A stretch of 64,000 nt of DNA from Candidatus Hydrothermarchaeum profundi (GCA_002011125.2 MTMF02000009.1:1672989-1736988), one strand, 5' to 3'; shown: positions 327 to 60,571, numbered from the stretch's first letter. The notes: generated by a model not told the origin, from the sequence alone. Program-made: numbers and translations.

Positions 327-328
327 GA

Positions 329-3300
329 ATGAGTTTTTTGAAAAAAGAGGATGGAATGATTCCATTTTCATCTCTTGGAATAATTATGCTTCTCATCACA
401 GGTATAGCGATCTATCACTTTAGTAAGGTAGATCTTCAGCGAGCGCGCTCTATGAATAAGCATACTGCTGACATGGAAACATTTTATTTAACAACCTCAA
501 TAAACTTAGACCTTCAGCAAATAACTCGAGGGGCTATTAAACAGGCTATTCTTAATCATTCAATTAGCACTTATGGGTCTCCTATTAATATCGATGAAGA
601 GTGGAAAAATCGAAAGGCATACGAACAATGGCGAAAAAACTTAGAAAAAGATATCGAACAATCAATTATAGATTCTATCTACTACTCATATTACCAAGGT
701 AATATAAGCAAGCTAAATGAAAGATATGACGATCACCTAACAAACTTCGATTTCTCTAGGTTTTTAAGCTCAAAGAAAGATCTAAAAGTTAAAATAAATC
801 CTGATTTTTATGATAGAGATAAAAAAGTGCAACATAGCCTTGAAACCGAGGTTAACTTTTATAGAAATGGCATTATCGGTGCCCATAATAAGTATACATT
901 TCATGAAATGTCCTTGAAGTTAGGTACTTCTGTGACATCCGGACTACGGCCTTTCACAATGGCGGATAAAGCGTATGCTTTTACAGGCATTTTTAAAAAA
1001 AGAGCACCTAACCCCTTGAATCCCCTAGAATGTATTGAACCAAAAAAGGCGGGATATAATACGGTAGACGAATTAGCATGGTACTTATGGGGCATACAGG
1101 AAGTCCTCGGTTTTTTTGAGGCTAATGTTAATCATAACATCAAATTCGCTACGGATGATAGAGCATCATATTCCCTAATTCAGTTAATTATAGCGTATAA
1201 AGAACTTGAGCAGTTTGGTACATTTGATTATATTCATGCTACTTCTGAGTTTATACGCCCATGGTTAGGAAGCGAGAATGAAGGGGAAGAGTTTGTTAGA
1301 GTTCTTGAAAAGGGATTGAACGAAAAAGTAGCTAAAGAAGCTGCAGATATGATGGAGTCTTCAACCTTTATTAAAAATCTTTTCAGCAGAATTAACGAGA
1401 TTGGAGATCTATTGATACTATCAGCATCACATTTGGATAGTGCTACCGTGAATATGGATAAAGGAGGCGGATTCCCCCCAGCCATCGCCTCTAATCTAAA
1501 TTTAGCCTCAGAAGGAGTAACCCAGCATTTAAGACAAGCCAGCGACATGTCTCGTCTAATGGAAGTCTACGATACATTATCCCTGATAAAAGAAGAAGTT
1601 GAAGAGAATAAAGAGAATGTAGAAAGTTCTGAAATAGAAAATTGGGGAGATAAAATTGAAGCTCAGATCTCAACTGTTGCACAAGAATGGAATGATGTCA
1701 AAGAAGAGTGGAAAGAAGGGAAATATGACCTCGAAACTTCTAAAAATAATCTAATATTAGCCAAAAAAGACCTTATTGGCCTCAAATTCTGGTTAGAAGA
1801 TGAAAAATGCAAAAATAATGTAGCTACTTCTTTATGGTTTGGAAATGAGAATCAAAACTATAAAGGTATGTACGAGATACTGCCCGCGAAGTTAGAAGAA
1901 ACTAATAGACTTATAGACTCGCTTAGTGACTTAGAAGGAAGATATAATGCTTTAAGATATGATGAAAACTCAGACGATTATTACATTAACTACTATTACC
2001 ACGAAACAATTAGAAATTTGAAGGAAGCGAAAAGCCTTCTTTCTCAAGCAGAATCGGCTAGGGAGACATATCTTGCTCAGAAATATAAGTATGATAACTG
2101 CAGACTCCAAATAGACTATAAAGATCCAAAAATGGGCGGTTGCTTAAGTTCTGGCTATCGATGTAGAGCATATAAATGCAGTCCCTATCCCTGTGATTGC
2201 ACAACTGAAGAAGGTGTTACAACCTGTGAGACATGCTACAGAACTTGCTACCATTCATGTTATGATTGTATATGTGATAAGGGCATCTTAGAAATTAACT
2301 TCAGAGAAGCTCAATCTAAATACGAAGAATATATGAAAAAAGCATTAAAGCCGCTCTCTCGTGCAATAGAAGATGTTCTCTTAATGAGAAACTCTGGAGA
2401 AACCTTTTACGATGAAAAAGGGGCACAGGAAATATTAGAAGAAATTGAGAAAATTCATGGAGTATATACAACTCCCACTTACCTTCCATCTCAAGAAACA
2501 TACTACTCCATAACTGATATCTATTATGCTCACTGGAACTTCTCCCATAGTAAGAATGACATTCCTCATTACATACTAGCTTTAGATATCAATACCCCAC
2601 TGACGTATAATTTAGAAAACAAAAAATTTGATGATTATGGCATCTTCCACATTCAACGAACAGTTAAAGCCATGGAAAGAGCTATCGAAGACCCTTCTCT
2701 TGATGTAGACGCCCTTCAAAGAGGAGAGCAAGCGCTTGAAAAGATGATAAACCAACGCTATTTTGAGAATCTTTCAGGGATATTAGAACTTATCGGTATA
2801 TTTATAGAATCTTCTGAGAATATGAGAACCGCTCTACTAAACATAAGAACATTAGAAACACATTTTCCTAATGCAGTAGATCACGCTTATACAACTTTCC
2901 TTCTACCCCCTATAAATTCATCGCGTTTAGGCTATCAATATCAGGGGCTATCGGTTATACATGATATTCGGCTTAGAGTAGATACACGTCCTGGTAAAAT
3001 TAAGCTCCCGATTATAGGCGAAGTAGGCTTAGGCAGAGATAACTCAGTTAATCCTTCCTTCCCGCTACCTTATACTCCTGTTAATTTTTATATATGGGGC
3101 TTTGAGATTACTCCAAGTTTTAATGAAGAAATACCAGAAATGTCGACACTCTGGCTCATTGACTCCGATACGAATGTACTTACCTCTCTACTAGAAATGA
3201 AGATTAATGATAAAACTATTCCTATCCCCTTGATTCTTCATAAGCCAATTATGTATAAATTCGAATTTACTCCTTTAGAAATTATCTCCAAAAGCATTGG

Positions 3301-4063
3301 AAAAAATTATCTACCTCCCGTAGTTGTTTTCTCTGTGGGACCTTTTACCACCAGATTTAGAGATCGCGTTGAGCCTCCGGATAAAGACATCACAGTACCA
3401 ATTCTTGTAGATTTATCTTATTCAGATAAACGTGTGTACCTGAATACTTCGAATTCCGCTGGGCGGGAAGTATATGTGTTTACTTCGGCATTCGAAAGGG
3501 TGAACAGTTTAAGTTATCCTCTAAAAACTTCTTTAGGAACTTTAAAATTAAACGGCAAAACTTTTTTCTCATCGAATTCAAAAGCCCCCAAGTGGGCACA
3601 ATTAAATGGATTAAAATTATTAGACGAATATGGATGGTCCGAAATTATCATAGACGCTTATGCTACTCATGATCCTATGAGCCCGATTTTCAGCAACAAG
3701 TCTAAACGTATTGAAAAGACTTCCCATGTAAAAGGAAGCGATCATATTCGGATTCTATTACAAGAAGATATCGGAAAAATAAGTATCTCCGGGTCTAAAT
3801 ACGGAGATCATTTGCGAGTAAGTAATAAGGGAAATAAGAGAGTTGATATCTCGATAAGTGGGGAAACATGCACATTTTTTAAGCCTATGACCCCTAGGTC
3901 TACTATTACTAAAGAAATGTGGTTTGGTACGATAGATCCTAAGAGAAGTATAGAATTAATTGTCTTTTACAAAGAAAAAACCAATGTTTCTGTTGAAATA
4001 GAAATGCCGAGGGTATTAAAGGAAGATCTAGATATTCCAAGTATCAAGATAGAGTATCCATAA
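329..4063 (+). CDS. Large secreted protein with class III (prepilin-like) signal peptide, coiled-coil core and Cys-rich insert
   Basis: ATG at 329 gives MSFLKKEDG|MIPFSSLGIIMLLITGIAIYHF (charged leader, G, hydrophobic helix); long helical region; 12 Cys at nt 2099-2275. Confidence 0.7.
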   Translation: MSFLKKEDGMIPFSSLGIIMLLITGIAIYHFSKVDLQRARSMNKHTADMETFYLTTSINLDLQQITRGAIKQAILNHSISTYGSPINIDEEWKNRKAYEQWRKNLEKDIEQSIIDSIYYSYYQGNISKLNERYDDHLTNFDFSRFLSSKKDLKVKINPDFYDRDKKVQHSLETEVNFYRNGIIGAHNKYTFHEMSLKLGTSVTSGLRPFTMADKAYAFTGIFKKRAPNPLNPLECIEPKKAGYNTVDELAWYLWGIQEVLGFFEANVNHNIKFATDDRASYSLIQLIIAYKELEQFGTFDYIHATSEFIRPWLGSENEGEEFVRVLEKGLNEKVAKEAADMMESSTFIKNLFSRINEIGDLLILSASHLDSATVNMDKGGGFPPAIASNLNLASEGVTQHLRQASDMSRLMEVYDTLSLIKEEVEENKENVESSEIENWGDKIEAQISTVAQEWNDVKEEWKEGKYDLETSKNNLILAKKDLIGLKFWLEDEKCKNNVATSLWFGNENQNYKGMYEILPAKLEETNRLIDSLSDLEGRYNALRYDENSDDYYINYYYHETIRNLKEAKSLLSQAESARETYLAQKYKYDNCRLQIDYKDPKMGGCLSSGYRCRAYKCSPYPCDCTTEEGVTTCETCYRTCYHSCYDCICDKGILEINFREAQSKYEEYMKKALKPLSRAIEDVLLMRNSGETFYDEKGAQEILEEIEKIHGVYTTPTYLPSQETYYSITDIYYAHWNFSHSKNDIPHYILALDINTPLTYNLENKKFDDYGIFHIQRTVKAMERAIEDPSLDVDALQRGEQALEKMINQRYFENLSGILELIGIFIESSENMRTALLNIRTLETHFPNAVDHAYTTFLLPPINSSRLGYQYQGLSVIHDIRLRVDTRPGKIKLPIIGEVGLGRDNSVNPSFPLPYTPVNFYIWGFEITPSFNEEIPEMSTLWLIDSDTNVLTSLLEMKINDKTIPIPLILHKPIMYKFEFTPLEIISKSIGKNYLPPVVVFSVGPFTTRFRDRVEPPDKDITVPILVDLSYSDKRVYLNTSNSAGREVYVFTSAFERVNSLSYPLKTSLGTLKLNGKTFFSSNSKAPKWAQLNGLKLLDEYGWSEIIIDAYATHDPMSPIFSNKSKRIEKTSHVKGSDHIRILLQEDIGKISISGSKYGDHLRVSNKGNKRVDISISGETCTFFKPMTPRSTITKEMWFGTIDPKRSIELIVFYKEKTNVSVEIEMPRVLKEDLDIPSIKIEYP

Positions 4064-11702: not shown

Positions 11703-11859
11703 ATAATCACCTTTTGATTATAATTGAACTCCTCATTATAAAGGTTTTGTTATTAAAGCGATATTTTGATTGGGAGTACAGAAACAACTTTAAATATATT
11801 TCTCACCATTTCAAAAGACTACAGGAAATTTTAAAGTATTAATTAACAAATTTTAGAAT

Positions 11860-12525
11860 ATGACCACAAAAAAAGAAATAAGCCATATTAAAAACATTTC
11901 ACCCAGATTAAACGATAGGAAGGCTATCACGCTAATTAGCCTTATGAAAAATGGGAGAATTTCGGACACGGAACTAATGGTGCACCTCGGATTAAAAAGT
12001 GCAAATTCGGCTTCGTACTATAGGAAAGATTTAGAAAAACAGGGAATAATTGAGGGATATACTACCTCAGTAAATTGGACAAAGATAGGATACCCTACGG
12101 ACTTTGTTATTTTAATAGAAGGGGGAAGTATGGAAGCGAATTTCAATATAGAGAAGGAGATAATAACATCTCTAGAAGATTACGCCAAGAAAAAAGGAGA
12201 TATTCTTATCTTGCCGAGCGGCAATGGTAGAGTCCTGATCAAAAATATAACTACCTGTTTCGGAGAAAGACCCATGACAATAATTCAGGGCCATGCCTCA
12301 TCAGAGCACGATGCCCTAATATACTTCAGATATTATGTTGCGGAGAAATTCCAAAATGCAAAAACAACTTTCTTGCTGGTGAAGGGTAAAAGTATAGATA
12401 ACCATTTTATCAAAAAGGATTACATAAATTTCATGAAAGGCTCCTTTACTGAAGAGGATACCCTAGAATTGCCCGAGGAGTTCAAAAAACATTTTCCATC
12501 ATTAGCAGCAAAACCAAAGAAATAG
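11860..12525 (+). CDS. Lrp/AsnC-family transcriptional regulator with divergent C-terminal domain
   Basis: LMKNGRISDTEL...LEKQGIIEGYTTSVNWTKIGYP is the Lrp HTH-linker pattern. Confidence 0.8.
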   Translation: MTTKKEISHIKNISPRLNDRKAITLISLMKNGRISDTELMVHLGLKSANSASYYRKDLEKQGIIEGYTTSVNWTKIGYPTDFVILIEGGSMEANFNIEKEIITSLEDYAKKKGDILILPSGNGRVLIKNITTCFGERPMTIIQGHASSEHDALIYFRYYVAEKFQNAKTTFLLVKGKSIDNHFIKKDYINFMKGSFTEEDTLELPEEFKKHFPSLAAKPKK

Positions 12526-13242
12526 TTACTCCAACTCTAATTCTTCTCTTCCAAAAACCCTAAATCTTCCATTTGAATACAAAATAGGGAAATATTGCGT
12601 ATCATGATTTGTGCTCCTCATTTTCACTATACCGATATATCTTTCAAGAGCACTAAGCACATCCCCTCTCTTTTGGAAATCTAAATGTATTATTCCATCA
12701 GCTAGGAAATCCTCCACTCCATACTGGCTATATACCGGTCTCTCTGGAGACATTTCAGATATCAAAAAACAGGTTATCCCTGTGGTTTTCAAATCCTTAA
12801 AAAGGTAGTAGAGTTCCCTTCTTGGATCTCTAATAGTTGTTAAAGAGTAAAGAGCGTTAAGGGAATCTATAACCAATAAGTCATATTCCTGTCCTTTTTT
12901 AGCTTCCTCAATATATCCCCTAATCAACCGTATCCAATTGTCCCCGTATTTCTTTTCCATAGCTGCTTGAACCTTCCTAAAATCTACTAGCAGGATATTT
13001 CTGTGATCAGACATTCCGAGTCTCCTCATCTGTTGCATAAGACTCTCTATCTCCTGTTCTAGGGTTATATAGACGGACTTTAGATCTTCATTAACTGCAT
13101 TATTGTAAAGGATACTATATGCAAGAGAAGATTTCATAGTGCCTGCAGTGCCGCAGATTAACGTAATACTCCCCTTTGGAATTCCTCCTTCGATATGTCT
13201 GTCTAAACCTTCAACATAAGTTCTTATTCTAGGCACATCCAT
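12526..13242 (-). CDS. KaiC/RAD55-family single-domain ATPase
   Basis: TYVEGLDRHIEGGIPKG, Walker A variant GTAGTMKS, YITLEQ, Walker B LLVIDSL, ADGIIHL, KMRST; ATG at 13242 has GTGA upstream. Confidence 0.9.
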   Translation of the reverse strand: MDVPRIRTYVEGLDRHIEGGIPKGSITLICGTAGTMKSSLAYSILYNNAVNEDLKSVYITLEQEIESLMQQMRRLGMSDHRNILLVDFRKVQAAMEKKYGDNWIRLIRGYIEEAKKGQEYDLLVIDSLNALYSLTTIRDPRRELYYLFKDLKTTGITCFLISEMSPERPVYSQYGVEDFLADGIIHLDFQKRGDVLSALERYIGIVKMRSTNHDTQYFPILYSNGRFRVFGREELELE

Positions 13243-13409
13243 ATTATCACGTAAGATTTTTTTTACTTGAAGAATTAAATAGTTTTCCACAAGTAAAAAC
13301 GGTTTGGCACCGATGTTAATATCAAACAGCTACCAAAAGACTACTTCCGTATACCTAATACAACAAGAAATGACTCAAGAAATAATTAAATATTCAATAG
13401 GTTTAGTGA

Positions 13410-14867
13410 ATGGAAAGGATTAGTAAATATCGTAGAGGTAAAAGTTTGACTAATATTCAAAAGGAATTAATAAAAATTGTAGGACCAAAAAATGTCTTTT
13501 CTGAAAAAATTCAGAGATTTTGCTATCGTTTCGGGAATGTGATTGAGTATCGGTTTGATACTCCCTCCTTTTTACCAGATTTTGTGGTAAGACCTGTTTC
13601 AACACAGCAAGTAGCATCTATCCTGAAACTTGCAAACAAGCATCAAATCCCTGTCGTAGTATGGGGAGGTGGTACCGATTTTAGCGGAGCCAATAGTCCG
13701 ATTAAAAACGGGATTGTAATAGATATGAAAGAGTTTAATGAAATACAAGTTGATGTGAAGAGACGGTGTGTTACAGCCGGAAGCGGAGCTATTTTGAAGA
13801 AGATAGGGGAGGAGTGTGAAAATAAAGGATTTTTATTCGAGCATGAACTAACAAGCCAGCCAGGAGCAACTCTAGGAGGTGCGATTGCCACAAACTCATT
13901 TGGCTATAGGTCCGGAAAATATGGGTCCATTAGGAACCTTATACTAGGGATTGAAGTCGTCTTGCCTACAGGGGAGATAATAAAAACTAAGCCCTTGTTC
14001 AAAACATCCATGGGGTATGACCTCGTATCGCTCTTAGTTGGCAGTGAAGGAACATTAGGAGTGATAACTCAGGCTACATTGAAGCTTAGTCCTTTGCCAG
14101 AAAAAAGGGAACTCTATACCTTTGTATTCAGCAGGATAAATCATGCAATAGAAGCTGCTGAAAAAGTATACAACACTATCCCCCCAGATTTATTTGAAAT
14201 TTTTGAAATGAGTTTTTTGGGATATGTAGAGAATACTCAAGAATTTATAGAAGAGCATATTGGTATTCCAAAAAACCTGCTGGACTTAAGTGATGGATTC
14301 CCGGCTATCTTGACTGTAGGATATGAAGGTAAAAAAGAAGTAGTAAATAGTAAGATAAATATTTTGAAAGACTTAATAACCGATGGATTAAGTATTCAAA
14401 ACGAAGGTTACTATGAGAACAGGTTTATTAGGTATCATAAAGAGTTCAGAAAAATCCTCAATCTTCTGCCAAACATTTCATTAAAAGATTACAGCTATGC
14501 TACCTTTGACTTCAGCATCCCTGAAACAAAGTTATTGGAATTTAATGATACTCTTCACGCAATATCTAAAGAATATTCAAATACATATCTATTGGATGTA
14601 AACCTCTATTCAGCGCTTTCTGTCGTGGGTATAGATTTCTTTGTGCCAAATAATAAAGAAGTTTACAAGAATTTGGCTGAGGAAATATTTAGAGTAGTAT
14701 TAGAGCTAGGCGGATCTTTATCTTCTGTCCATGGAATAGGAACTCGGTTAATACCTCACCTTAGAAAAGATTTAGGTGATCCATACGTAGACTTAATGAA
14801 TAGAATAAAGAAAGCCTTTGATCCTTTGAATATCTTAAACCCTGGTAAGCTGGGTAACGTGATGTAA
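13410..14867 (+). CDS. FAD-binding oxidoreductase (VAO/PCMH, GlcD/ADPS-like), atypical
   Basis: WGGGTDFSG, ATLGGAIATN, GSEGTLGVIT, HGIG, FDPLNILNPGK. Confidence 0.88.
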   Translation: MERISKYRRGKSLTNIQKELIKIVGPKNVFSEKIQRFCYRFGNVIEYRFDTPSFLPDFVVRPVSTQQVASILKLANKHQIPVVVWGGGTDFSGANSPIKNGIVIDMKEFNEIQVDVKRRCVTAGSGAILKKIGEECENKGFLFEHELTSQPGATLGGAIATNSFGYRSGKYGSIRNLILGIEVVLPTGEIIKTKPLFKTSMGYDLVSLLVGSEGTLGVITQATLKLSPLPEKRELYTFVFSRINHAIEAAEKVYNTIPPDLFEIFEMSFLGYVENTQEFIEEHIGIPKNLLDLSDGFPAILTVGYEGKKEVVNSKINILKDLITDGLSIQNEGYYENRFIRYHKEFRKILNLLPNISLKDYSYATFDFSIPETKLLEFNDTLHAISKEYSNTYLLDVNLYSALSVVGIDFFVPNNKEVYKNLAEEIFRVVLELGGSLSSVHGIGTRLIPHLRKDLGDPYVDLMNRIKKAFDPLNILNPGKLGNVM

Positions 14868-14868
14868 A

Positions 14869-15216
14869 ATGGAGGAAAACACCGAACTCATACAACTCTG
14901 TTTGAATACCCGATGCAATTACTGTAGATCTGCGTGTAGAGATTTTAAGAGAAGAAGAATGGAGTTCGGATCTCCAAGAGAAAAAATAGAGATAGTTTAC
15001 GAAGCTCTTAATGGTAGATTGAACCCTAAGGAAGCCTCCGATAATCTTTTCCATTGTATTTCTTGTAAAAAATGCTCATCTGCTTGCCCTTACAACATTG
15101 ATACTTCAAAAATTTTATGGGATAATAGAAGATTATTTGAAAATTGTCCTAGAAAGTATTTCTTCATACTAGCCTATGTCTTCTCCAAGCTCTTCAGAAT
15201 AAGCTACCGGGGCTAA
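14869..15216 (+). CDS. Small 4Fe-4S dicluster protein (GlcF N-terminal-like, no CCG domains)
   Basis: CLNTRCNYCRSAC...SPRE...CISCKKCSSACP. Confidence 0.7.
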   Translation: MEENTELIQLCLNTRCNYCRSACRDFKRRRMEFGSPREKIEIVYEALNGRLNPKEASDNLFHCISCKKCSSACPYNIDTSKILWDNRRLFENCPRKYFFILAYVFSKLFRISYRG

Positions 15217-16329
15217 TATACACCTCGCAGGCAAGTGCCAAGGCTTCTCGCCGTCTAATTTTATATCATTGTCTAAAGATTTGGCCAAAAGTACACCTTT
15301 ATCGAATGTCGGCTCCATGAAACCTAGTTTAGAAAACGCGTTTCTTCTCCATTTAATTCTTCTATCAAAGACACTAGCCACAAAACTATAATTAGGCTTA
15401 GAATCTATGATGTATAAGAGCATATTAGCAGGCACCGTAGAATTTTGAAACTCTCCTACAACCGCAAACTCATCAGGGGTATATCCGTAAAATATTTGCC
15501 AATTATCACTATAAACCGGTTTTCCAAACATCCAGCCGCTCCATGCAGAGATAATGTAGGTTAGTACCCCAATAATCTCGCTGTCTTTCTCAGCTACAAT
15601 ACCTTGGATATTATTATTTTTAATTATTTTACCAAATTTACTTAAAGTATAATTTGCGGCAATTTCGAAATCTTTATTAGTGTTCTCGAGGAGTCTAACA
15701 ATATCCGAGTAATCTGATTTTTCCATAGACCTTAAATGTATATTTTCAGGGAGCCTTCCGACAAACAAACTTTTAGCCTTATTGTAGCCTCTAAGTAACT
15801 TGAAAATTAATCTCCAATACAAATTCGCTTCAGCTCGCCAAAAATAAGGGATCGTTCCTTTTAAGTTAATCCCACTAGAAAACCAATTTACTCCCTTTAT
15901 CCACTTAAATCCAAGCCGCTTGAATAGTTCTTGATTTCTCAAAAAATTCTCCTCAAACTCCCAGCCACATAAGATGCTTACATCTTGGCATCTTAATTCT
16001 GCACTTATATCCGAAAATAAAAGTTCAAATATCCTATTATAATTTTTTCTATAATGTGGGTGAATACAATTGTCTACAAAAGAAGCTATTCTAACGCTCT
16101 CTCCTTTAACTAAAGCATCCAGTAGTATAACCCCTAATGAAGCTATAATTTTATCATCTCTTTCTATTCCTCGTACTACATAGTCGCCAGACATCTTGTA
16201 TCTAAGGATCCACTCATTAGGCACCCTCACATAATCAAATTCCTTTTTATCATAGAATATAGACTCATAAAATAGTTTCAAGAATTCGGCATCTCTTTCT
16301 CGAGAATACTCCACAATTTTGAAACCCAT
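15169..16329 (-). CDS. Tandem GNAT-fold acyltransferase-like protein
   Basis: Two GNAT-like units (IIASLGV..FVDNCIHPHYR..FKRLGF; LRSMEKSD..EIIGVL..FSKLGF). Confidence 0.7.
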   Translation of the reverse strand: MGFKIVEYSRERDAEFLKLFYESIFYDKKEFDYVRVPNEWILRYKMSGDYVVRGIERDDKIIASLGVILLDALVKGESVRIASFVDNCIHPHYRKNYNRIFELLFSDISAELRCQDVSILCGWEFEENFLRNQELFKRLGFKWIKGVNWFSSGINLKGTIPYFWRAEANLYWRLIFKLLRGYNKAKSLFVGRLPENIHLRSMEKSDYSDIVRLLENTNKDFEIAANYTLSKFGKIIKNNNIQGIVAEKDSEIIGVLTYIISAWSGWMFGKPVYSDNWQIFYGYTPDEFAVVGEFQNSTVPANMLLYIIDSKPNYSFVASVFDRRIKWRRNAFSKLGFMEPTFDKGVLLAKSLDNDIKLDGEKPWHLPARCILAPVAYSEELGEDIG

Positions 16330-16409
16330 GTTTAAAAAGCAGACAAAACTTAAATATTAAAGTTCCTTCGAAAAGTTAATTTAGCCCGTCTTCGGGAGTA
16401 GCAGAAAAT

Positions 16410-19388
16410 ATGAAACTCGAAAACTTCCTTATAACTCCTTTAACAATTCTTTTTTTAATTCATAGTGTAACTGCCTACTCATCTTATTATTCAGACATAC
16501 CTTTTTTTATAAAGTTCTATGTGTTAGTTTTGGGTTTGCACCATGCCTCAATGATAGCTTTCCTGTGGGAAATAAAAGGAGTTTCTAAATCGAAAGTGTG
16601 GGATAATATATTCAACGCAAATATATGCGGCATTTTTATTACATTCTCTTTAGCTTTGCTTTTGTATAACCTTTACTTAAATTCTATAAACTGGCGGCAT
16701 CTATTAGTCATCTGTGCGGGATTAGATATAGTAGCTCACATTTTTGCCGATATTACTCTATATTATCTTGTAAAGCCTATTATTAAGGAGAAGCTTAATT
16801 TATTTAAATACAGGTATTTAGCCCTTTACGCAGGAATCACAGGGTCTTTATTCTTCTTGATCATATATAATTTAAAAATAAAATTTCCTACCGTCTCTAC
16901 TGATCTACCTTTTAGCATTCTAGGTTTACTTTTTGCTTTTACAGTTTTTTACTTTGTATATTCCCCTATTATAATTTCTGAGGCATATAGAGAAATAGGT
17001 TTTGTTAGGAAACCATTCTCCCTTGCTGGAATAGGAGCTTTAACATTTGTTATCTCTTCTATATTAGTTTTATATGTGACCTTCTACCATATTGAAACTA
17101 CTATTAGACATCAGCTTTTCTACAATATAGCGATTTATGTTCTGGCATCAATTTTCTCATTGATATTCTATACTAAGTTTATAGTAGAGTATCCATCACT
17201 TCTAGAGAGAAAATGGAAAGCATTAATGCCTTTTGATTTTATTAAAATCGCTACAACTTTAGCTCTATTTTTCTTGGCTGTGTCTCTTTATTTTTCAGCT
17301 GAAAAATATTTGGAATTGCCCTTTAGGCTAGAAATATTATTGCCGGTTCTTTTAGGTTTACTAGCGATTTTTATAACCGTAATTTATATTCTTTCATACA
17401 CAAATAGCATTTATAATAAAAGCAAGCTTGTTTATTGGATATATCTAAAAGCTGGTTTATTTATTCATGTAGCATCTACTCTATATGTGCTAGCACTAAT
17501 TATTCTTTTATGGAAGACCCTGAACAATATAGGTAAATACCTATCATCCTTCTTTATTGTTCTTGTATTTTCATTTTACATTTCTTATGCAATGGATCTG
17601 CGCACAATTTTGAAAAATCTGGGGATAAGAACTCGTCTTACTAAAGCTGAAATCACAGGTAATGCTGTGTTGCTCTATGCTATATTTTTAATAATTTTCT
17701 TCTTTATCCTTTTAACCTATGGGAAAACTTCACTAATTTTATATGATATCCAGATAGAATCCTACCCCTTTCTATTATTTTCAATAGCCGTTTTCTTGGT
17801 TGCATATATAAGTTACCTAAGCGTCACGCACAAGGGATTTGAAGAAATGATGAAAAAAAACATTTGGAGCGAACTAACCTATATATCCGGATTTTTAACT
17901 TTTATTACAGTCTATTTATTATATACCTCAGAAAAAAATGTCCAACTTTTCCTATTTCACGATTTCTTTTTTATAAGCTATTTCGTGATGCTTTTAATCG
18001 AAATTGCGTCAATAAGAACGTTAGGATATCATCCGATACATAAAAAAGGTGAAAAAAGCCTGATGTATCTTTTCTACCATCATACGAGCGCATATTTCAG
18101 GGTAGATTACCTTGAGAAAAAATGGAAAAAAATTGTAGACACATACAAGCATCTAGACAGTAAACTATCTACGATCAAGTACAATCCTGCCAAGAGGTCT
18201 TTTGACCTATCAGAACTAAATGAAAAAGCTAGGACTGTTGTTGCCGTTGCAATGTTGCTTGAAATGTACCAGGATAGGAAGGATTTAGGTAAAGTTACAC
18301 CCCTCGGAGAACGCGATATAAAGAGAGAAATAAAAGAAACCTTGAAAGAAAAGGTACTACTCCTCCCCGCAGATTTAAGATCTAAATTTGATGAAGACGA
18401 ATACTATCCTCTTCTCTATGAGTATGCGATTAATACTATAATCGAAAAAATCAAGCCATTTGTCCCTGTTGAAGAACATCAAGAAATTTTTAACAAACTA
18501 AAAAGGGTAGATGATTTCTTCGAATCATTAGAACTCCGGGATTCCAAAATCAATTTTAAGACTGAAAAAAGAATTTCCAGAAGAAACTTTATAAGATATT
18601 TAAAAATGTATTTGCGTTCCATAGAGGAGAGGTTCCCTTTTGAAGATAAGTTACTGTATGAATCTGTAAAAGAGTTAGTGAATAGAGACCTCTCTAATTA
18701 CGGTTTTTCTGTAGTAGATTTGTTAGACATAGTGCCTTCAGGTATCAATCCTGTAGACCGGATTAGTGGCGGACTAAAAAAAGGTACTATGACCCTTCTA
18801 ATATCTGAAGAAAATAAGTATAAGAACGAATTTCTAGAATCCTTCATACGTCAAGGATTAAAAGACGGTGATTGTAATATTTATGCAACATCAAAACTAC
18901 CCTCACAAGAGATATATAATAATCTTTTAATGGATTTTGAAATTAAAAAAACCACTCTAATAGACCTCTATCAGTCGATATATACAACATCACCAGTATC
19001 TAGCATCAGAGAGGAACCTCATAAAATAATTATACCCCCCACAATCATCTCATGGAAAATTAGCTTAACAAAAGCGGTTAAAAAATATTCAAAAGAAGAA
19101 CATAAAAGAATAGTCATAGACGTATTTAATGATCTCCTGAGGTACTATAACCAAGATGAGATAACCAAAGTTTTATATCGACAGCTTGAGGGACTTCGAA
19201 AGTGGAATTGTACTGTAATAATAGTTCTTTATCCTAAAACATTTCAAGAAAATAAATATGAAGAAATTAAAAAATGGTTTGATAACGTTCTCATTTTAGT
19301 AGGGCGAGAAAAAACTTACTTAAATTTTGATAAACTTCATGGAGGATTGCCAAAAAAGAGGTCAATACCTCTTGAGGAACAGTGGTGA
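16410..19388 (+). CDS. Multi-pass membrane protein with C-terminal degenerate KaiC/RAD55-like domain
   Basis: About 530 aa of successive TM helices, a helical linker, then VPSGINPVDRISGGLKKGTMTLL (KaiC N-terminus), broken Walker A, IVID. Confidence 0.75.
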   Translation: MKLENFLITPLTILFLIHSVTAYSSYYSDIPFFIKFYVLVLGLHHASMIAFLWEIKGVSKSKVWDNIFNANICGIFITFSLALLLYNLYLNSINWRHLLVICAGLDIVAHIFADITLYYLVKPIIKEKLNLFKYRYLALYAGITGSLFFLIIYNLKIKFPTVSTDLPFSILGLLFAFTVFYFVYSPIIISEAYREIGFVRKPFSLAGIGALTFVISSILVLYVTFYHIETTIRHQLFYNIAIYVLASIFSLIFYTKFIVEYPSLLERKWKALMPFDFIKIATTLALFFLAVSLYFSAEKYLELPFRLEILLPVLLGLLAIFITVIYILSYTNSIYNKSKLVYWIYLKAGLFIHVASTLYVLALIILLWKTLNNIGKYLSSFFIVLVFSFYISYAMDLRTILKNLGIRTRLTKAEITGNAVLLYAIFLIIFFFILLTYGKTSLILYDIQIESYPFLLFSIAVFLVAYISYLSVTHKGFEEMMKKNIWSELTYISGFLTFITVYLLYTSEKNVQLFLFHDFFFISYFVMLLIEIASIRTLGYHPIHKKGEKSLMYLFYHHTSAYFRVDYLEKKWKKIVDTYKHLDSKLSTIKYNPAKRSFDLSELNEKARTVVAVAMLLEMYQDRKDLGKVTPLGERDIKREIKETLKEKVLLLPADLRSKFDEDEYYPLLYEYAINTIIEKIKPFVPVEEHQEIFNKLKRVDDFFESLELRDSKINFKTEKRISRRNFIRYLKMYLRSIEERFPFEDKLLYESVKELVNRDLSNYGFSVVDLLDIVPSGINPVDRISGGLKKGTMTLLISEENKYKNEFLESFIRQGLKDGDCNIYATSKLPSQEIYNNLLMDFEIKKTTLIDLYQSIYTTSPVSSIREEPHKIIIPPTIISWKISLTKAVKKYSKEEHKRIVIDVFNDLLRYYNQDEITKVLYRQLEGLRKWNCTVIIVLYPKTFQENKYEEIKKWFDNVLILVGREKTYLNFDKLHGGLPKKRSIPLEEQW

Positions 19389-19454
19389 CCACAAAAAATA
19401 TTTATTTTAGAAAATAAAGTTAGATAAGTCCCTAGGTTAGATGGAAGTATATCT

Positions 19455-20120
19455 ATGAACCATTTCATTTCAATAGCGAGTACTATTCTAGCTTTTGGAA
19501 TAATAGGTGGTGGTCTAAAGTTTATTGACGATGCCTTCGATGAAGGAATATTTAATAAAAAGCTAGCTAGTATTACTGCAGTAATACTAGTAATATTGTG
19601 GATTTTTTTATCTCTGAAAGATCCTTACTCCGGGACAATATTATTTTCAATTTTAGCAGGGGTTCTTTTCTCTGGAAAAATAGATAATACAGTATTTATT
19701 GCAAGTACTCTTGCACTCGCTTTGACTACGCTGATTATGGGAGCTACGATATTTTGGATACCGCTGATTATTTTAACTATCTTCGGAGTTATTGATGAAC
19801 TAGGCAATGACTATACGGACATCCACAAAACTCGGCGGCTGATAAAATTTTTTTTTGAACACAGATGCACACTAAAACTGGGTATTCTTGCGATTTGTTT
19901 AACTACATTTTTTCCTATAGAATATTTTCTAATTTTCTTAGCTTTTGATATCTCATATGACTTTGTAGGAATGTATAGTAAAAGAATTAGCAATATAGCA
20001 GAGCCTAAAGTTACAATATTCCTGTGTAATGAACTTCCTTTCCAAATACCTGTAGAACGTGTATGTTTTATGAAATCTGGATTACGCCTTGAGGATAAAA
20101 GCATAAGAATTATTGTATAA
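19455..20120 (+). CDS. Uncharacterised membrane protein with Asp-rich motifs
   Basis: About 7 hydrophobic segments; KFIDDAFDE, GKIDN, VIDELGND. Confidence 0.7.
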   Translation: MNHFISIASTILAFGIIGGGLKFIDDAFDEGIFNKKLASITAVILVILWIFLSLKDPYSGTILFSILAGVLFSGKIDNTVFIASTLALALTTLIMGATIFWIPLIILTIFGVIDELGNDYTDIHKTRRLIKFFFEHRCTLKLGILAICLTTFFPIEYFLIFLAFDISYDFVGMYSKRISNIAEPKVTIFLCNELPFQIPVERVCFMKSGLRLEDKSIRIIV

Positions 20121-20639
20121 ATAATATACTTCATTAGGGAAAAAATTTTTTAATAAAAAAAAGAATTTTAAACCATAATAGATAAATTTTTTAGAATTTT
20201 TATTTGTTAATTAAATTAAAAATTTACTTTATTATAAATTTATAATATTATTAAAAAATTTTATTTCTTTAATTATTTTATTAATAATTTAATGATAAAA
20301 TAAAAAATTAAATTTATTTCTATGTTTTATAAATCCTATATCCTAAAAGTGAGAAACAGTTCACATTAAAGAGGTTTATATCCCGAGCTAAATTACTCTT
20401 TAGTCCTTCAAAGATCGTAACTTTGAAAAGATAGTTAATAGCAGAATAGATTGGCCATATATTAAAAAAAATATTATTATTTTATTTTTTAAGGTTAATA
20501 TAAGTCTATTTTTGTTTTGATTTTTTATAGAATATTTATCTATTTTTTTCAAAAAATATTATAGAAATAGTATAGTAAATATTATTTTCTATAAATTTTC
20601 TTTTTTAATTTAACAATATTTCATTAGGAGGTGAAGTAA
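20121..20639. promoter_or_regulatory. Long, extremely AT-rich intergenic region with a more GC-balanced core of three inverted repeats
   Basis: Nearly pure A/T flanks; core 20349-20427; ends in AGGAGGTGA SD. Confidence 0.5.
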
Positions 20640-20765
20640 ATGGAGCAAGTATCCCCTCTACAAAGCGATGTTAAACGCCTTTACGAACTATTAGGGGTGG
20701 GGAAAAGAGGGGAAATAAAACACGCAAAGTCCGGTGGGGGAAGAGATGAAAAAAAGTATTTCTAA
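20640..20765 (+). CDS. Micro-ORF 1, 41 aa (MEQVSPLQSDVKRLYELLGVGKRGEIKHAKSGGGRDEKKYF)
   Basis: Translated by hand; strong SD AGGAGGTGA just upstream of the ATG; below the ORF-track cutoff. Confidence 0.6.
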   Translation: MEQVSPLQSDVKRLYELLGVGKRGEIKHAKSGGGRDEKKYF

Positions 20766-20892
20766 AAAAAGCTCAAGTCATATTATCCTCTGCCCAGATG
20801 AAACAAAAAAGAGAGTAAATAACTACGTCATCGTAGAAATAGAGGGAACCGGTTTTGTAGTAATAAAACAAAAAATAGACGCGGAGCTATGA
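20746..20892 (+). CDS. Micro-ORF 2, 48 aa (MKKSISKKSSSHIILCPDETKKRVNNYVIVEIEGTGFVVIKQKIDAEL)
   Basis: Overlaps the ORF1 end; GGTGGGG upstream; protein-like beta-strand pattern. Confidence 0.5.
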   Translation: MKKSISKKSSSHIILCPDETKKRVNNYVIVEIEGTGFVVIKQKIDAEL

Positions 20893-20893
20893 T

Positions 20894-21070
20894 ATGGAGG
20901 AGATTATTGAAAGAAAAAAACTTCTAGAGAAATATAGGATAAAAGAACCTGACGAAACACAGATATACTTAATACTCAGAGACTTTGTTTCAGACCCTCT
21001 TCTAGACACCGAATTCAAGAGAAAATTTCCCTCATTAACATCTATCCTGAAGCAGAGAAATAAAGGATAA
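20894..21070 (+). CDS. Micro-ORF 3, 58 aa (MEEIIERKKLLEKYRIKEPDETQIYLILRDFVSDPLLDTEFKRKFPSLTSILKQRNKG)
   Basis: ATG 1 nt after the ORF2 stop, GGAG upstream; shares LxxEFKxxFPSL with the Lrp-like protein. Confidence 0.6.
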   Translation: MEEIIERKKLLEKYRIKEPDETQIYLILRDFVSDPLLDTEFKRKFPSLTSILKQRNKG

Positions 21071-21084
21071 AATCTATAAAATTC

Positions 21085-23076
21085 TCATTTTTCTATAGGT
21101 ATTCTGCCATCAATTAGCGATTTTATTATCGTAGGATCAGCGAGGGTAGACGTATCGCCTAGATTTTCGTAATCACCTTCTGCTATCTTTTTGAGTATTC
21201 TTCGCATAATCTTACCGCTTCTAGTTTTAGGAAGCCCATTTGCAAATTGTATGTAGTGAGGGGTTGCAATAGGGCTTATCTCTTTTCTTACATGTTGAAT
21301 TAGCTCTTTTTTTAGTTCGTCCCTCTTTTCTACATCTTTTTTCAAAACTACAAAACAATATATCGCCTGACCTTTTATAGGGTGAGGCACACCTACCACG
21401 CCCGCTTCAACTACAGCATCATGAGAAACTAGTGCATTTTCTATCTCAGCAGTTCCTAAACGGTGCCCAGATACATTTATAACGTCGTCAATACGGCCCA
21501 TAATCCAAAAATATCCATCCTCATCAACCTTAGCGGCATCCCCCGTCATATATTTCCCCTTGAACTTGCTAAAGTAAATCTCTTTAAATCTCCTATTACC
21601 TTTATCACCAAATATCCCTCTCAGCATACCAGGCCATGGTTTTTTAATAACTAGGTACCCGCCTTCATTTGCTTCCGCAGGAGTACCATCTTCTTTTAAA
21701 ACTTCAGGAAATATTCCAGGAAAAGGTAATGTAGCCGAGCCGGGTTTGAGAGGGGTTGCCCCGGGTAAAGGGGTAATTAATATGCCGCCAGATTCGGTTT
21801 GCCACCAAGTATCCACTATAGGACATCGCTCTTTTCCTATTACCTTATAAAACCAAAGCCATGCCTCCGGATTAATGGGCTCTCCTACTGTCCCCAAAAG
21901 CCGTAGGCTTGATAAGTCATGCTTATTAGGCCATTCCTCACCAAACTTCATAAGGGTTCTAATCGCAGTAGGAGCAGTATAAAATATAGAAACTTTGTGT
22001 CTCTCTATTATACTCCAATATCTATCCGGATTAGGATAAGTTGGAGTACCCTCAAACATTAGCACAGTCGCTCCAGCAGATAATGGACCATAGACCATAT
22101 ATGTATGGCCTGTTATCCACCCGACATCAGCCGTACACCAGAAGATATCAGTATCCTTTATATCAAAAATATACCTAAAAGTCATATTGGCATAGACCAT
22201 ATACCCTCCAGTAGTATGTATTATTCCTTTAGGTTTCCCTGTAGAACCACTTGTATATAATATAAATAAGGGGTCTTCTGCATCCATAGGTTCCGGGGGA
22301 CATTCATCTTTGATATCGCTTGAGTGTGTTTCTTCTTCCCACCAGTAGTCGCGACCCTCCTCCATATTTACCTCGGCATTTCCTATATTTCTAACAATAA
22401 CTGACTGAATAGAATCACAGTCAGGGAGGATCTCATCAGCCTTTTCCTTTAGATGTATAACTTTTCCCGCATGATAAGCTATATCTGTAGTTATCAACAT
22501 CTTAGATTGAGCGTCTTGTATTCGGTTTTTAAGGGCTTCCGGAGAAAATGCACTAAATACAACACTATGTACCGCGCCAATTCTCGCACAAGCCAGCATT
22601 GCAATAGTCAATCTAGGTACCATTGGCATGAATATTGTAACCCGGTCCCCTTTTTTTACTCCATGTTTTTTGAGTACGTTTGCAAATCTACAAACTTCTC
22701 TATGCAACTGTAGATATGTGAACACTTTACGTTGAAGATGGCTTTCTCCCTGCCATATGAGTGCTGCCTTATTTCTCCGGTGCCCACTTAAGTGTCTATC
22801 AATACAATTATAAGACGCATTCAGCTTTCCCCCTTCATAGAACCTCACGTATGGAACAGTAAAATCATAACTTACAACTCTATCCCATTTTTTAAACCAG
22901 TCAATACATTCTGCCTGTGCAGCCCAGAAGCCTTCAAAATCTTCTTCCGCTTCTCTTTGAAGAGCACGGTATTCTTCAAGGCTTTTTATAATGGCGGTTT
23001 CCCTAAATTCTTTTGAAGGATAAAAAACTCTTTCTTCTTTTGATAAGCTCATTATGGTTTCTGGGTCTTCTTTCAT
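21085..23076 (-). CDS. acs: Acetate--CoA ligase (AMP-forming acetyl-CoA synthetase)
   Basis: YTSGSTGKPKG, VGEPINPEAW, DTWWQTE, LPKTRSGKIMRR, LGDTSTLADP. Confidence 0.96.
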   Translation of the reverse strand: MKEDPETIMSLSKEERVFYPSKEFRETAIIKSLEEYRALQREAEEDFEGFWAAQAECIDWFKKWDRVVSYDFTVPYVRFYEGGKLNASYNCIDRHLSGHRRNKAALIWQGESHLQRKVFTYLQLHREVCRFANVLKKHGVKKGDRVTIFMPMVPRLTIAMLACARIGAVHSVVFSAFSPEALKNRIQDAQSKMLITTDIAYHAGKVIHLKEKADEILPDCDSIQSVIVRNIGNAEVNMEEGRDYWWEEETHSSDIKDECPPEPMDAEDPLFILYTSGSTGKPKGIIHTTGGYMVYANMTFRYIFDIKDTDIFWCTADVGWITGHTYMVYGPLSAGATVLMFEGTPTYPNPDRYWSIIERHKVSIFYTAPTAIRTLMKFGEEWPNKHDLSSLRLLGTVGEPINPEAWLWFYKVIGKERCPIVDTWWQTESGGILITPLPGATPLKPGSATLPFPGIFPEVLKEDGTPAEANEGGYLVIKKPWPGMLRGIFGDKGNRRFKEIYFSKFKGKYMTGDAAKVDEDGYFWIMGRIDDVINVSGHRLGTAEIENALVSHDAVVEAGVVGVPHPIKGQAIYCFVVLKKDVEKRDELKKELIQHVRKEISPIATPHYIQFANGLPKTRSGKIMRRILKKIAEGDYENLGDTSTLADPTIIKSLIDGRIPIEK

Positions 23077-60560: not shown

Positions 60561-60571
60561 TCCCCTGTCCC

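Follow-up and report, generated by a model that had tools for sequence, protein, structure and literature searches.

Introduction

Archaeal KaiC-like ATPases are reportedly hubs of signal transduction: Makarova, Galperin and Koonin, writing in mBio in 2017, are said to have proposed that these ATPases act together with membrane sensors and with inactivated KaiC domains of the DUF835 or MEDS type. Here we describe a block of ten open reading frames (ORFs) that holds a KaiC family protein together with a membrane protein whose own KaiC domain is predicted to be inactive. The block belongs to a stretch of 64,000 nucleotides, called the window below, from the archaeal assembly of Candidatus Hydrothermarchaeum profundi (G000 in our numbering; 2.19 Mb, 39% GC), where it lies on a contig of 1.9 Mb (G000:C9:1672989-1736988). 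It is flanked by riboflavin/repair genes and by an acetyl-CoA synthetase gene. The larger genes are called, in order, reg221, kaiC254, fad485, fes115, gnat386, mem992 and mem221, and are followed by three micro-ORFs, m1, m2 and m3.

Polymorphic pairs of enzyme and receptor are seen in the agr system of Staphylococcus, which shows a pattern corresponding to that of comQXPA in Bacillus. Parts of PMC4008528 describe ComP's N-terminal domain, with 8-10 transmembrane (TM) helices, as variable and its cytoplasmic domain as conserved, ComQ being an isoprenyl transferase; the polymorphism of comQXPA is the subject of passages in PMC4408185. According to sections of a review of geranylgeranyl reductases (GGR; PMC10821996), the GGR paralogues are uncharacterised and often accompanied by ferredoxins, their possible substrates are quinones, polyprenols and carotenoids, and a phytoene-desaturase homologue makes hydroxyarchaeol. 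The review makes no mention of KaiC, and a literature search for KaiC together with geranylgeranyl reductase gave only an incidental co-mention, as judged from title and abstract. Double GNAT acyltransferases of the N-myristoyltransferase (NMT) type and of the HisAT type have been reported in archaea by structure search, and the NMT mechanism is described as having the C-terminal carboxylate in the active site (both from parts of PMC12219266). A literature search on N-myristoyltransferase in Asgard archaea found nothing.

Exchange of the enzyme cassette together with part of mem992

The genes of the block do not lie side by side merely by chance. The cluster is real and recurs, and it is made up of three evolutionary modules, these being the reg221/kaiC254 pair, mem992 with mem221, and the enzyme cassette of fad485, fes115 and gnat386. 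For comparison, 40 relatives were searched (G001-G040, draft genomes, mostly of one order), together with a set of 14 loci anchored on the GNAT gene (2 genomic and 12 metagenomic), in which genes were counted by tblastn and Pfam.

The enzyme cassette is exchanged between relatives together with the first part of mem992. Locus L024 and relative G032 (locus L012) are collinear, with 93.6% identity over 9074 nt, through the cobalamin genes, a histidine kinase gene, mem221 and the portion of mem992 that begins at about codon 240, in the nucleotide alignment. There follows a part that cannot be aligned, which in L024 is 3.9 kb long and consists of the 5' part of mem992 with the gnat, fes and fad genes, and in G032 is 2.8 kb long and consists of the 5' part of mem992 with two GGR-type genes. 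The alignment then resumes, at 89%, from the TrmB gene onward. The same pattern of swap, with different cassettes, is found between G026 and G032 (genus g18) and between G025 and G023 (genus g17), and the breakpoint is just 5' of a conserved EYPSLLxPKWxALMPFD motif in mem992.

The protein sequences of mem992 agree with this. Over residues 30-290, 300-560 and 600-985 respectively, the identities are 42, 93 and 97% for L024 and G032, 36, 81 and 80% for G025 and G023, and 37, 87 and 79% for G026 and G032. G017 and G009, which have the same cassette, are 96 and 94% identical over the first two regions. The reverse situation is seen for L024 and G000, with 63, 40 and 41%: the GNAT, fad and fes proteins and the N-terminal module of these two are each 53-63% identical, and the rest of mem992 about 40%. 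Among 25 full-length mem992 proteins (300 pairs), identity in the N-terminal part and identity in the C-terminal part have a correlation of only 0.29, the extremes being P0122 and P0124 (98% in the C-part, 27% in the N-part) and, in the opposite direction, G000 and L024 (39% and 62%). Because the nucleotide and protein alignments both show a joint swap, we regard the first 250 or so residues of mem992, with about 8 TM helices, as a module that moves with the enzymes.

Contents of the slot upstream of mem992

Genes of the GGR family (FAD_binding_3, with or without GGR_cat) are present in the slot 5' of mem992 in all seven relatives with sequence there. The slot contains a GGR gene in G006; a GGR-like gene, a Fer4 protein of 266 aa and an ORF of 85 aa in G009; an FAD protein of 407 aa and two Fer4 proteins (266 and 86 aa) in G023; GGR and a B12 radical-SAM enzyme in G025; a phytoene-desaturase-like gene, GGR and a GGR-like gene in G026; GGR and a GGR-like gene in G027; and GGR with an FAD protein of 350 aa in G032. 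In six relatives (G006, G010, G014, G018, G020 and G025) the kaiC254 orthologue, too, has a GGR-family gene divergent from it, and in G009 a GGR-like gene with no match to GGR_cat has that position. There are only 1-6 matches to GGR_cat per genome. G000 itself has a second and independent pairing of GGR with KaiC, outside the window, in which a canonical GGR (GGR_cat, 2.3e-24) overlaps the start of a KaiC paralogue on the same strand (G000:C9:1139494-1141435; L036:3492-5445).

The gene order of the window, with fad and fes convergent on gnat and gnat divergent from mem992, recurs in L023 and L024 (near-identical to each other), L025, L032 and L033. The gnat, fes and fad genes are found with no visible mem992 in L021, L027 and L029, and in part in L030, whose contig stops within fes; thus the GNAT cassette is conserved in 9 of the 14 GNAT loci. 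Other genes accompany GNAT elsewhere in the set. GGR-family genes flank it in L022, L031, L032 and L034, and a gene with FAD_binding_3 only in L033. A FIST-domain protein of about 430 aa (for example L026:8705-10000) is directly 5' of GNAT in four loci that have no mem992 (L022, L026, L028 and L030). Two further loci, again with mem992 absent, add a divergent FIST gene (L027) and a FIST_C fragment (L031), and we count these FIST genes among the hints of signalling. A saccharopine-dehydrogenase-like gene follows GNAT in L026 and L028.

Features of the block, with positions in the window
Feature	Position	Strand	Description
reg221	11860-12525	+	Lrp/AsnC-type winged helix-turn-helix regulator, truncated RAM-like segment, unique C-terminal domain of ~95 aa
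kaiC254	12526-13290	-	Single-domain protein of the KaiC/RadA-like ATPase family; PF06745
fad485	13410-14867	+	VAO/PCMH-type flavoprotein; FAD_binding_4 and FAD-oxidase_C
fes115	14869-15216	+	Mini protein of the 2x[4Fe-4S] type, with only the N-terminal part of GlcF
gnat386	15169-16329	-	Double-GNAT acyltransferase; by fold nearest to eukaryotic N-myristoyltransferases
mem992	16410-19388	+	Membrane protein of ~1000 aa with an inactivated KaiC domain at the C-terminus
mem992, variable input module	16410-17159	+	Codons 1 to ~250, ~8 hydrophobic segments
mem992, constant part	17160-18731	+	EYPSLLxPKWxALMPFD, ~7 more hydrophobic segments, THKGFEE, cytoplasmic helical linker
mem992, inactivated KaiC domain	18732-19388	+	Walker A replaced by S/xEExxxK; HKRxVxD and WNCT conserved
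mem221	19455-20120	+	Stand-alone helical membrane protein, Asp-rich motifs
AT-rich segment, 477 nt	20126-20628		GC ~15-19%; 13-nt direct repeat ATAYTTCATTAGG at both ends
Micro-ORF m1	20640-20765	+	41 aa; strong Shine-Dalgarno-like GGAGGTG 5' of the start
Micro-ORF m2	20746-20892	+	48 aa from ATG; conserved small-protein family
Micro-ORF m3	20894-21070	+	58 aa; lineage-specific

An earlier note, made from the sequence of the window, had listed as one contiguous block an Lrp-like regulator, a KaiC/RAD55 ATPase, an atypical FAD oxidase with a mini Fe-S partner, a tandem GNAT, a multi-TM protein with an inactive KaiC domain, an Asp-motif membrane protein, and three micro-ORFs behind a long AT-rich region. 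All of these elements were found in place by ORF, Pfam and NCBIfam analysis, and their identification is described in the sections that follow. The sequence is also found in other runs: an independent marine run (X2) contains contigs with the same sequence, and a vent run (X3) contains contigs of a relative that is about 94-98% identical, in which the gnat-mem992 and mem992-mem221 junctions are identical in arrangement. Contig joints within the AT-rich part, with sides of only 21-26 letters, were disregarded.

Linkage and co-occurrence in relatives

Among the 40 relatives, mem992 has 16 strong and 2 weak matches, and mem221 is present in 26. The two genes follow each other in 8 of the 16 relatives with mem992 (in 7 of them on the same strand), as also in L023 and L024, and in G025, G023, G027 and G013 a different gene comes after mem992. 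Orthologues of kaiC254 (E <= 1e-40) occur in 20 relatives, and their distribution follows that of mem992 closely: both are present in 15 relatives, mem992 only in one, KaiC only in 5 and neither in 19. The one relative with mem992 only is G034, which is 62% complete, and two of the KaiC-only relatives have weak fragments of mem992. Presence and absence of the two genes are split within families f1, f2 and f10.

Close orthologues of reg221 (62-70% identity) are found in 9 relatives, in 7 of which reg221 and kaiC254 are convergent and adjacent, as they are in the window, where the stop codon of one abuts that of the other. G009 is a real exception, and in G017 the KaiC gene is at a contig edge. 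The reg221/kaiC254 pair and the mem992/mem221 pair flank one slot in G000, G006 and G009. The gnat386 gene occurs in none of the 40 relatives, and in only 1 of the 41 genomes of the order-level sample, counting G000.

A gene for a soluble histidine kinase of 357 aa overlaps the end of mem221 in L011, L012, L014, L015, L023 and L024, which belong to genus g18 and metagenome relatives; it was identified by Pfam in two of the six loci and by tblastn in all. The protein (L011:7778-8851) has HisKA and HATPase_c domains, no hydrophobic segment, and an N-terminus of 120 aa with no assignment. In genus g17, mem992 is followed by a 268-aa protein that has no Pfam family (L006:8070-8876, L009:8497-9303), a metallophosphoesterase and a UbiA prenyltransferase. 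For the 268-aa protein, G000 has a homologue of 58-59% identity elsewhere (G000:C9:379959-380762).

The membrane proteins mem992 and mem221

In mem992, whose gene is divergent from gnat386, the residues up to 540 contain about 15 hydrophobic segments, and after them come a helical linker and a KaiC-like domain. Residues 775-968 match PF06745 with E 2.9e-9, and in the Atlas the C-terminal domain has a structure TM score of 0.83 to a KaiC cluster of 222 aa. The Walker A motif is absent from all 10 aligned orthologues, from which it would appear that this KaiC domain is inactivated, as the earlier note had supposed. No Pfam match to DUF835 or MEDS was found in mem992 at E <= 0.01; clusters of MEDS, DUF835 and KaiC/DUF7504 are its feature neighbours in the Atlas, with scores of 0.78-0.81.

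The AlphaFold2 (AF2) model of mem221 has 8 helices (pLDDT 87), and a Kyte-Doolittle scan finds 5 hydrophobic segments. Across 52 homologues the motifs IDDAFDE, GKIDN, DExGNDYxD, HRxxMK and FDxxY are invariant, and the order of helices in the model suggests that they would lie on one face of the membrane. All 86 homologues found are annotated as hypothetical and have no Pfam family. The family has at least 500 HMM matches (E <= 0.001, in a library of representatives of 50%-identity clusters), and the best 150 of these are all stand-alone proteins of 90-258 aa, none being fused. Nor does any solved fold match: Foldseek against the PDB gave nothing at E <= 0.001, the best match in a wide VIA search had Z 6.6, which is inside the noise for helical bundles, and the Atlas gave only unnamed archaeal clusters. 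The locus thus defines two uncharacterised families, mem221 and mem992.

The enzymes of the cassette

The Pfam matches of fad485 are FAD_binding_4 (5.9e-39) and FAD-oxidase_C (6.7e-26), and its score against the glcD model TIGR00387 is 245.6, below the cut-off of 567.9. The best relatives with solved structures are LctD (3e-41), alkyl-DHAP synthase (2.6e-40) and glycolate oxidase (1.4e-36), and judged by these matches the protein appears to be about equidistant from the LctD, D-lactate dehydrogenase and glycolate oxidase group and from alkyl-DHAP synthase. The His/His/Glu residues of the pattern GHxGDGNxH...EHG form the metal and catalytic site of D-2-hydroxyacid dehydrogenases. They are replaced in all 7 aligned members of the fad485 subfamily and kept in the canonical paralogue within the window (60572-61918). 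Because the whole subfamily lacks the pattern, the description of fad485 as atypical in the earlier note was justified. Orthologues of 47-60% identity are beside GNAT at full length in 7 loci, and L021 has, where its contig ends, a piece of the C-terminal part with 33% identity over 225 aa.

The 115 aa of fes115 contain the two 4-Cys motifs of the GlcF N-terminus, with Fer4-type matches only, and a short hydrophobic C-terminal tail; no CCG domain was found with Pfam or NCBIfam. Its gene is convergent with gnat386, the 3' ends overlapping by 48 nt. The size of the Fe-S partner varies with the presence of mem992. It is of the mini type (96-118 aa) in all 5 loci in which mem992 is next door, and has 353-356 aa in all 4 loci without mem992 (L021, L027, L029 and L030), where the CCG domain was recognised by Pfam in L021 and L027 only, L029 being assigned by alignment and L030 by length. 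It is worth adding that the window also contains a canonical GlcF-like gene (Fer4 and 2 CCG domains, 57194-58288) and the canonical GlcD-like gene noted above, and that these two are separated by the gene for a Na+/H+ exchanger with TrkA-C domains (58248-60575).

The only Pfam match of gnat386 is PF13527 (2.6e-6), and there are 18 homologues, with 40-57% identity, among 5.8 billion proteins, with source names that include Hodarchaeales and Promethearchaeota. The AF2 model, made from 19 sequences, is a tandem GNAT (pLDDT 89, pTM 0.89). The best 50 matches listed by Foldseek against the PDB are all N-myristoyltransferases (E 4e-18, TM 0.57-0.62, about 390 columns), and with VIA two NMT structures have Z 24.1 and 24.0 (311-318 residues aligned, rmsd about 4 Å). 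Other tandem GNATs are not far behind in VIA, with Z 22.4-18, the value for HisAT being 18.1. A profile of gnat386 matches NMT in the PDB weakly, with E 0.002 and over residues 168-260 only, and there is no match to the Pfam domains NMT and NMT_C. After a conserved LPARxIxAPV the tail is variable, and residues 383-386 have pLDDT < 50; a base of the NMT type, formed by the C-terminal carboxylate, is doubtful in gnat386 because the tail is both variable and poorly modelled. Pfam and NCBIfam gave no match to Autoind_synth, and there is no LuxI-type chain among the matches listed by Foldseek and VIA.

The regulator reg221 and the KaiC-like protein kaiC254

Pfam gives a weak match of reg221 to HTH_24. 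A profile of 8 orthologues (alignment A3) matches AsnC, LrpA and LrpC in the PDB with E 5.5e-8 to 4e-6 over residues 18-105 only, and in hhalign the protein matches the Lrp paralogue of the same genome with 96% probability, the helix-turn-helix (HTH) and the second half of the RAM domain being aligned with a gap of 40 residues. No Pfam match to AsnC_trans_reg was found and a complete RAM effector domain is lacking, and residues 128-221 match nothing, either as a profile against the PDB or in hhalign. The tail, LPEEFKKxFPSL, is invariant in all 8 orthologues. A relationship of reg221 to DUF2226 was considered and rejected (hhalign probability 0.1%).

The match of kaiC254 to PF06745 is strong (145.1 bits against a cut-off of 26.6, E 2.7e-42). 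Its Walker A motif is deviant, GTAGTMKS in place of the canonical GxxxxGK[ST], and GT(P/A)G(T/S)MKSS is found in all 9 aligned sequences of the subfamily (G000 and 8 relatives), so that the change of G to M is a property of the subfamily; the canonical GxxGxGK[ST] is kept in both of the two KaiC paralogues aligned beside it. KaiC-like ATPases also have a Walker B motif (hhhhD) and, after Walker A, a catalytic Glu. The Walker B sequence LLVIDS and a TLEQ(E/D) motif are conserved in all aligned orthologues, as is an acidic C-terminus, REELELE, in the subfamily. The PADLOC search gave only a weak P-loop match for kaiC254 (mad8, 5.4e-6). The cyanobacterial clock protein KaiC was considered as an identity for kaiC254 and dismissed, kaiC254 having one domain in 254 aa rather than two in tandem (about 500 aa), and a score of 121 against the NF006799 cut-off of 408; Pfam scans of the block revealed no KaiB-type neighbour. 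Prediction of a complex of kaiC254 with reg221 (alignments A4 and A3) gave no verdict on their contact (score 0.00).

G000 has 17 matches to PF06745 and hence many KaiC paralogues. One of these lies in what looks like another KaiC hub of the genome (locus L035), in the order of a 909-aa protein with a zinc ribbon, TPR and a KaiC/DUF7504 domain (L035:5523-9046; G000:C9:421522-425045), a canonical KaiC, and a convergent T2SSE-type ATPase.

The 11-mer CAAAAGACTAC is found at 11812-11822, on the promoter side of reg221, and at 13334-13344, between kaiC254 and fad485. The window has 2 copies, where 0.05 would be expected, and the genome has 6; the repeat was found post hoc, and its heptamer core is inconsistently placed in relatives, so that CAAAAGACTAC is a weak candidate for an operator. 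A scan for promoters and terminators of bacterial type gave nothing above shuffled sequences, with bacterial models that are ill-suited to archaea.

The AT-rich segment, the micro-ORFs and other features of the window

The gap between mem221 and m1 (20120-20640) is 520 nt long with 15-19% GC. Of 19172 windows of 400 nt along the contig, just 2 have GC <= 0.17, and these overlap each other and fall in this gap. The 13-nt direct repeat ATAYTTCATTAGG, exact but for one position, lies at 20126-20138 and 20616-20628, and its latter copy extends into the m1 ribosome-binding site. The number of occurrences of the repeat in the window is exactly 2, where 0.01 would be expected. Nowhere else in G000 is there a copy of the AT-rich segment. 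On these features, a reasonable reading is that the segment may be an insertion, with target duplication, between mem221 and the micro-ORFs. A replication origin was also considered, and is unsupported, Pfam scans of the window having found no Orc1/Cdc6.

The three micro-ORFs are tightly packed, with a Shine-Dalgarno-like sequence 5' of each. The start of m2 is most likely the ATG at 20746. A search for homologues of m1 found none. The m2 family is present in 17 of the 40 relatives, including genomes without mem992, and m2 is directly 3' of mem221 in G000, G006, G010, G014 and G023. No small-ORF orthologue of m3 was found; over the first 40 residues it is similar to an inner part of larger proteins of the DUF2226 type, and its end, ...EFKRKFPSL, resembles the end of reg221, ...EFKKHFPSL. 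This is the peptide motif that the earlier note had seen to be shared by the two ends of the block.

The whole window has no Rfam match at gathering scores, the only rows in 19900-21200 being below threshold, and no tRNAs. Elsewhere in the window are a 1252-aa ORF with no Pfam family at E <= 1e-6 (305-4063), a transporter of the AI-2E family (44948-46012), HMG-CoA reductase, of the isoprenoid pathway (47925-49208), and a homologue of the RuBisCO large subunit (55972-57189).

Interpretation

We tentatively read the block as a modular locus for tailoring and sensing of membrane lipid, in a homeostatic version that concerns the cell's own membrane, and would rate this at a little short of an even chance. 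What is observed underneath it is which genes are present, with what folds and in which conserved linkages, the swap of cassettes with a breakpoint that falls within mem992, and the phyletic pattern of co-occurrence. The lipid theme of the cassettes, an input module inherited with them, the dead KaiC domain, the phyletic tie to the KaiC and Lrp-like proteins, and the histidine kinase of one genus together lead to a model of tailoring, sensing and relay. The cassette enzymes (here gnat386, fad485 and fes115) would modify a hydrophobic isoprenoid or acyl compound. The mem992 protein would be the cognate membrane receptor or dock, with its first 8 or so TM helices presumably binding either the product of the cassette or the enzymes themselves, and with the constant part, comprising about 7 TM helices, the helical region and the dead KaiC domain, as transmitter. 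The constant partner, mem221, might be an Asp-rich, probably Mg-dependent membrane enzyme or transporter. The dead KaiC domain would make contact with the free kaiC254, kaiC254 would set the activity of reg221, and reg221 would feed back on transcription of the cassette, the outcome being homeostasis of the envelope lipids.

A number of points weigh against this model. Each binding step in it is inferred, as are the substrate and the way in which the signal runs. The co-occurrence counts overstate independence, because the relatives are phylogenetically clustered, and all of the genomes are uncultured assemblies. The kaiC-reg pair is beside mem992 in only 3 lineages of one order, it is 180 kb from mem992 in genus g18, and an orthologue of kaiC254 or reg221 is present in none of the 14 GNAT loci. 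The parts of the locus are separable, since mem221 and GNAT both occur without mem992: mem221 is present in 10 relatives with no match to mem992 (and in an eleventh, G014, with only a weak one of 1.1e-4), and GNAT is near mem221 without mem992 in L026 and L028. A single common substrate is not evident, because the cassettes are unrelated enzyme families. Finally, the deviant Walker A motif may make kaiC254 a poor ATPase, or no ATPase at all.

Four other explanations deserve to be weighed. In one, the locus serves signalling between cells: the cassette makes an exported, lineage-specific, lipid-like signal, the N-terminal module of mem992 is its receptor, and kaiC254 with reg221, or the histidine kinase of g18, gives the output. 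As in ComP and ComQ, the enzymes and the multi-TM input vary among close relatives and the cytoplasmic part is conserved, and the NMT-like gnat386 suggests transfer of a long-chain acyl group. However, no gene for a signal precursor, exporter or processing enzyme was identified at the locus, m2 belongs to a family that occurs independently of mem992, m1 and m3 have no orthologues, and Pfam found no LuxI-type domain; the cassettes moreover differ by whole enzyme families rather than as alleles of one synthase, and those of the GGR type resemble the chemistry of bulk lipids. We retain the idea, as an unlikely one, because this pattern of polymorphism is a hallmark of comQXPA. Its fullest form, an archaeal "pherotype" system read by KaiC, in which interchangeable cassettes (an NMT-like acyltransferase with a flavoprotein, or sets with GGR, radical-SAM or desaturase enzymes) would make distinct lipid-derived signals for lipid-based recognition of kin or group, and would each move by recombination along with a matching 8-TM input module, is likewise improbable. 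Equally, the locus might have nothing to do with signalling, mem992 being a scaffold or a conduit for electrons or lipid in a membrane enzyme complex, with an N-terminal module that docks the enzymes and replaces the CCG domain, and with a dead KaiC domain used for structure or assembly. The loss of CCG does track the presence of mem992 (5 of 5 loci, against 0 of 4 without it), flavoproteins are present in all cassettes and ferredoxin-like partners in several, and mem221 with its conserved motifs looks like an enzyme. Arguments against such a complex are that mem992 is phyletically coupled to a free ATPase of the KaiC type, that in g18 a histidine kinase is fused into the operon, and that an HTH regulator lies next door; inactivated KaiC domains have, besides, reportedly been proposed as signalling modules (by Makarova et al. 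in 2017). We think this explanation improbable too.

It is also conceivable, at a rather low probability, that there is no functional unit here, the slot being a recombination hot spot or an island of envelope variation, where cargo genes unrelated to one another are replaced along with an N-terminus of mem992 that evolves fast, perhaps through exposure to viruses, and with the kaiC-reg pair as an independent neighbour. Very close relatives do have different cargo, kaiC-reg is unlinked in g18, GNAT is confined to a single one of the sampled genomes, and an AT-rich insert with direct repeats is nearby. Against this, the cargo is coherent, consisting of isoprenoid or lipid redox enzymes and acyl enzymes at 7 of 7 GGR-type loci and at 5 GNAT-type loci, and G000 and L024, which are distant, share the GNAT cassette along with the input module (62-63% in the N-part, 39-41% in the rest). 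There is no match to a defence system beyond the weak P-loop one, and no integrase or transposase in the slot of the loci scanned. The last explanation, protein lipidation, in which gnat386 would N-acylate a protein of the locus, or other proteins, for membrane anchoring, we consider very improbable. The fold searches and the profile do point to NMT, but scores almost as good (Z 18-22) are reached by tandem GNATs whose substrates are small molecules, the Pfam domains of NMT are absent, and the tail makes the NMT-type carboxylate base questionable. In addition, gnat386 itself is the only one among the neighbouring products to start with Met-Gly.

Returning to the homeostatic reading, we note that it preserves a part of the interpretation in the earlier note, which had proposed a quorum-sensing-like circuit in which a LuxI-like synthase makes a small acyl or lipid-like molecule that is sensed at the membrane and relayed through KaiC. 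By the terms of that note, the proposal would fall if the genes did not occur together in other genomes and if no interactions of KaiC, pseudo-KaiC and Lrp were predicted or measured; the genes recur in relatives, so that the proposal is not refuted in this way, and the co-occurrence, the dead KaiC domain and the themes of lipid or acyl chemistry and of signalling all stand. The first of these themes has gained from the NMT-like fold of gnat386 and from the GGR cassettes in the same slot of relatives, and the second from the co-occurrence of kaiC254 with mem992, the histidine kinase in g18, and the comQXP-like swap of input module and enzymes together. Four parts of the proposal lack support. 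The analogy with LuxI is not supported, the fold of gnat386 being that of an NMT-type double GNAT; nor is the view of the block as one fixed unit, since in the loci examined the kaiC-reg pair and the GNAT cassette are never together outside G000; contacts among KaiC, pseudo-KaiC and Lrp are likewise unsupported; and a diffusible signal is unsupported, the comQXP-like polymorphism leaving it a slim chance.

Comparison with known systems

The inputs of the archaeal KaiC-like ATPases, which are abundant, are almost unknown, and the locus described here ties KaiC, GGR paralogues and NMT-like double GNATs together. The exchange of a receptor input module with defined sets of enzymes predicts that each type of receptor recognises the product of its enzymes, and were the sensed compound to prove released, one could regard the locus as a candidate system of lipid-based communication in archaea with a defined genetic basis.

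The general plan resembles the proposed KaiC hubs in having a free, single-domain KaiC-like protein beside an HTH regulator, a polytopic membrane protein with a KaiC domain that has no P-loop, and many KaiC paralogues in the genome. It departs from them in the change of G to M in Walker A throughout the subfamily, in the tie to GGR or NMT-like cassettes and in the swapping of the input module, and mem992 differs from sensors of the DUF835 or MEDS type in having no Pfam match to either.

With comQXPA and agr the locus shares a pattern in which the enzymes vary jointly with the receptor's N-terminal, multi-TM input, the cytoplasmic transmitter being conserved. The likeness is one of pattern only, no homology having been found. 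The output of mem992 is a dead KaiC domain and not a histidine kinase, a separate soluble histidine kinase being present only in g18; there is no peptide precursor, and no precursor-like gene varies with the cassette; and the cassettes represent different enzyme families, not alleles.

The double-GNAT fold of gnat386 is, over its full length, that of eukaryotic NMT and of other double GNATs (HisAT/NAT16, Eis, MshD and MAB_4324). It differs from NMT in sequence (12-16% identity), in a signature that is kept only in part, in a variable tail and in the lack of NMT domains in Pfam, and its genomic partners (a VAO-type flavoprotein, an Fe-S protein, GGR, FIST and mem221) have no counterpart there. 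In the same way fad485 is like GlcD, LctD and alkyl-DHAP synthase in its FAD_binding_4 and FAD-oxidase_C domains, and fes115 is like GlcF in its N-terminal Cys motifs, but fad485 differs from GlcD in scoring below the glcD cut-off and lacking His/His/Glu, and its partner differs from GlcF in lacking CCG where mem992 is adjacent.

Lastly, the cassettes of the sister genomes are made up of the same families as the loci in which GGR paralogues accompany ferredoxins and the phytoene-desaturase-like enzyme of hydroxyarchaeol synthesis, whereas the slot in the window has no GGR, the closest GGR-type genes of G000 being elsewhere. Hubs of this general kind, in which an archaeal KaiC-like ATPase works with membrane sensors and with KaiC domains that have been inactivated, have reportedly been proposed already. 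What is new relative to the literature found is the linkage of a dead-KaiC receptor and a KaiC subfamily to cassettes of GGR paralogues or an NMT-like enzyme, together with the P-loop change of that subfamily and the modular swap of the input.

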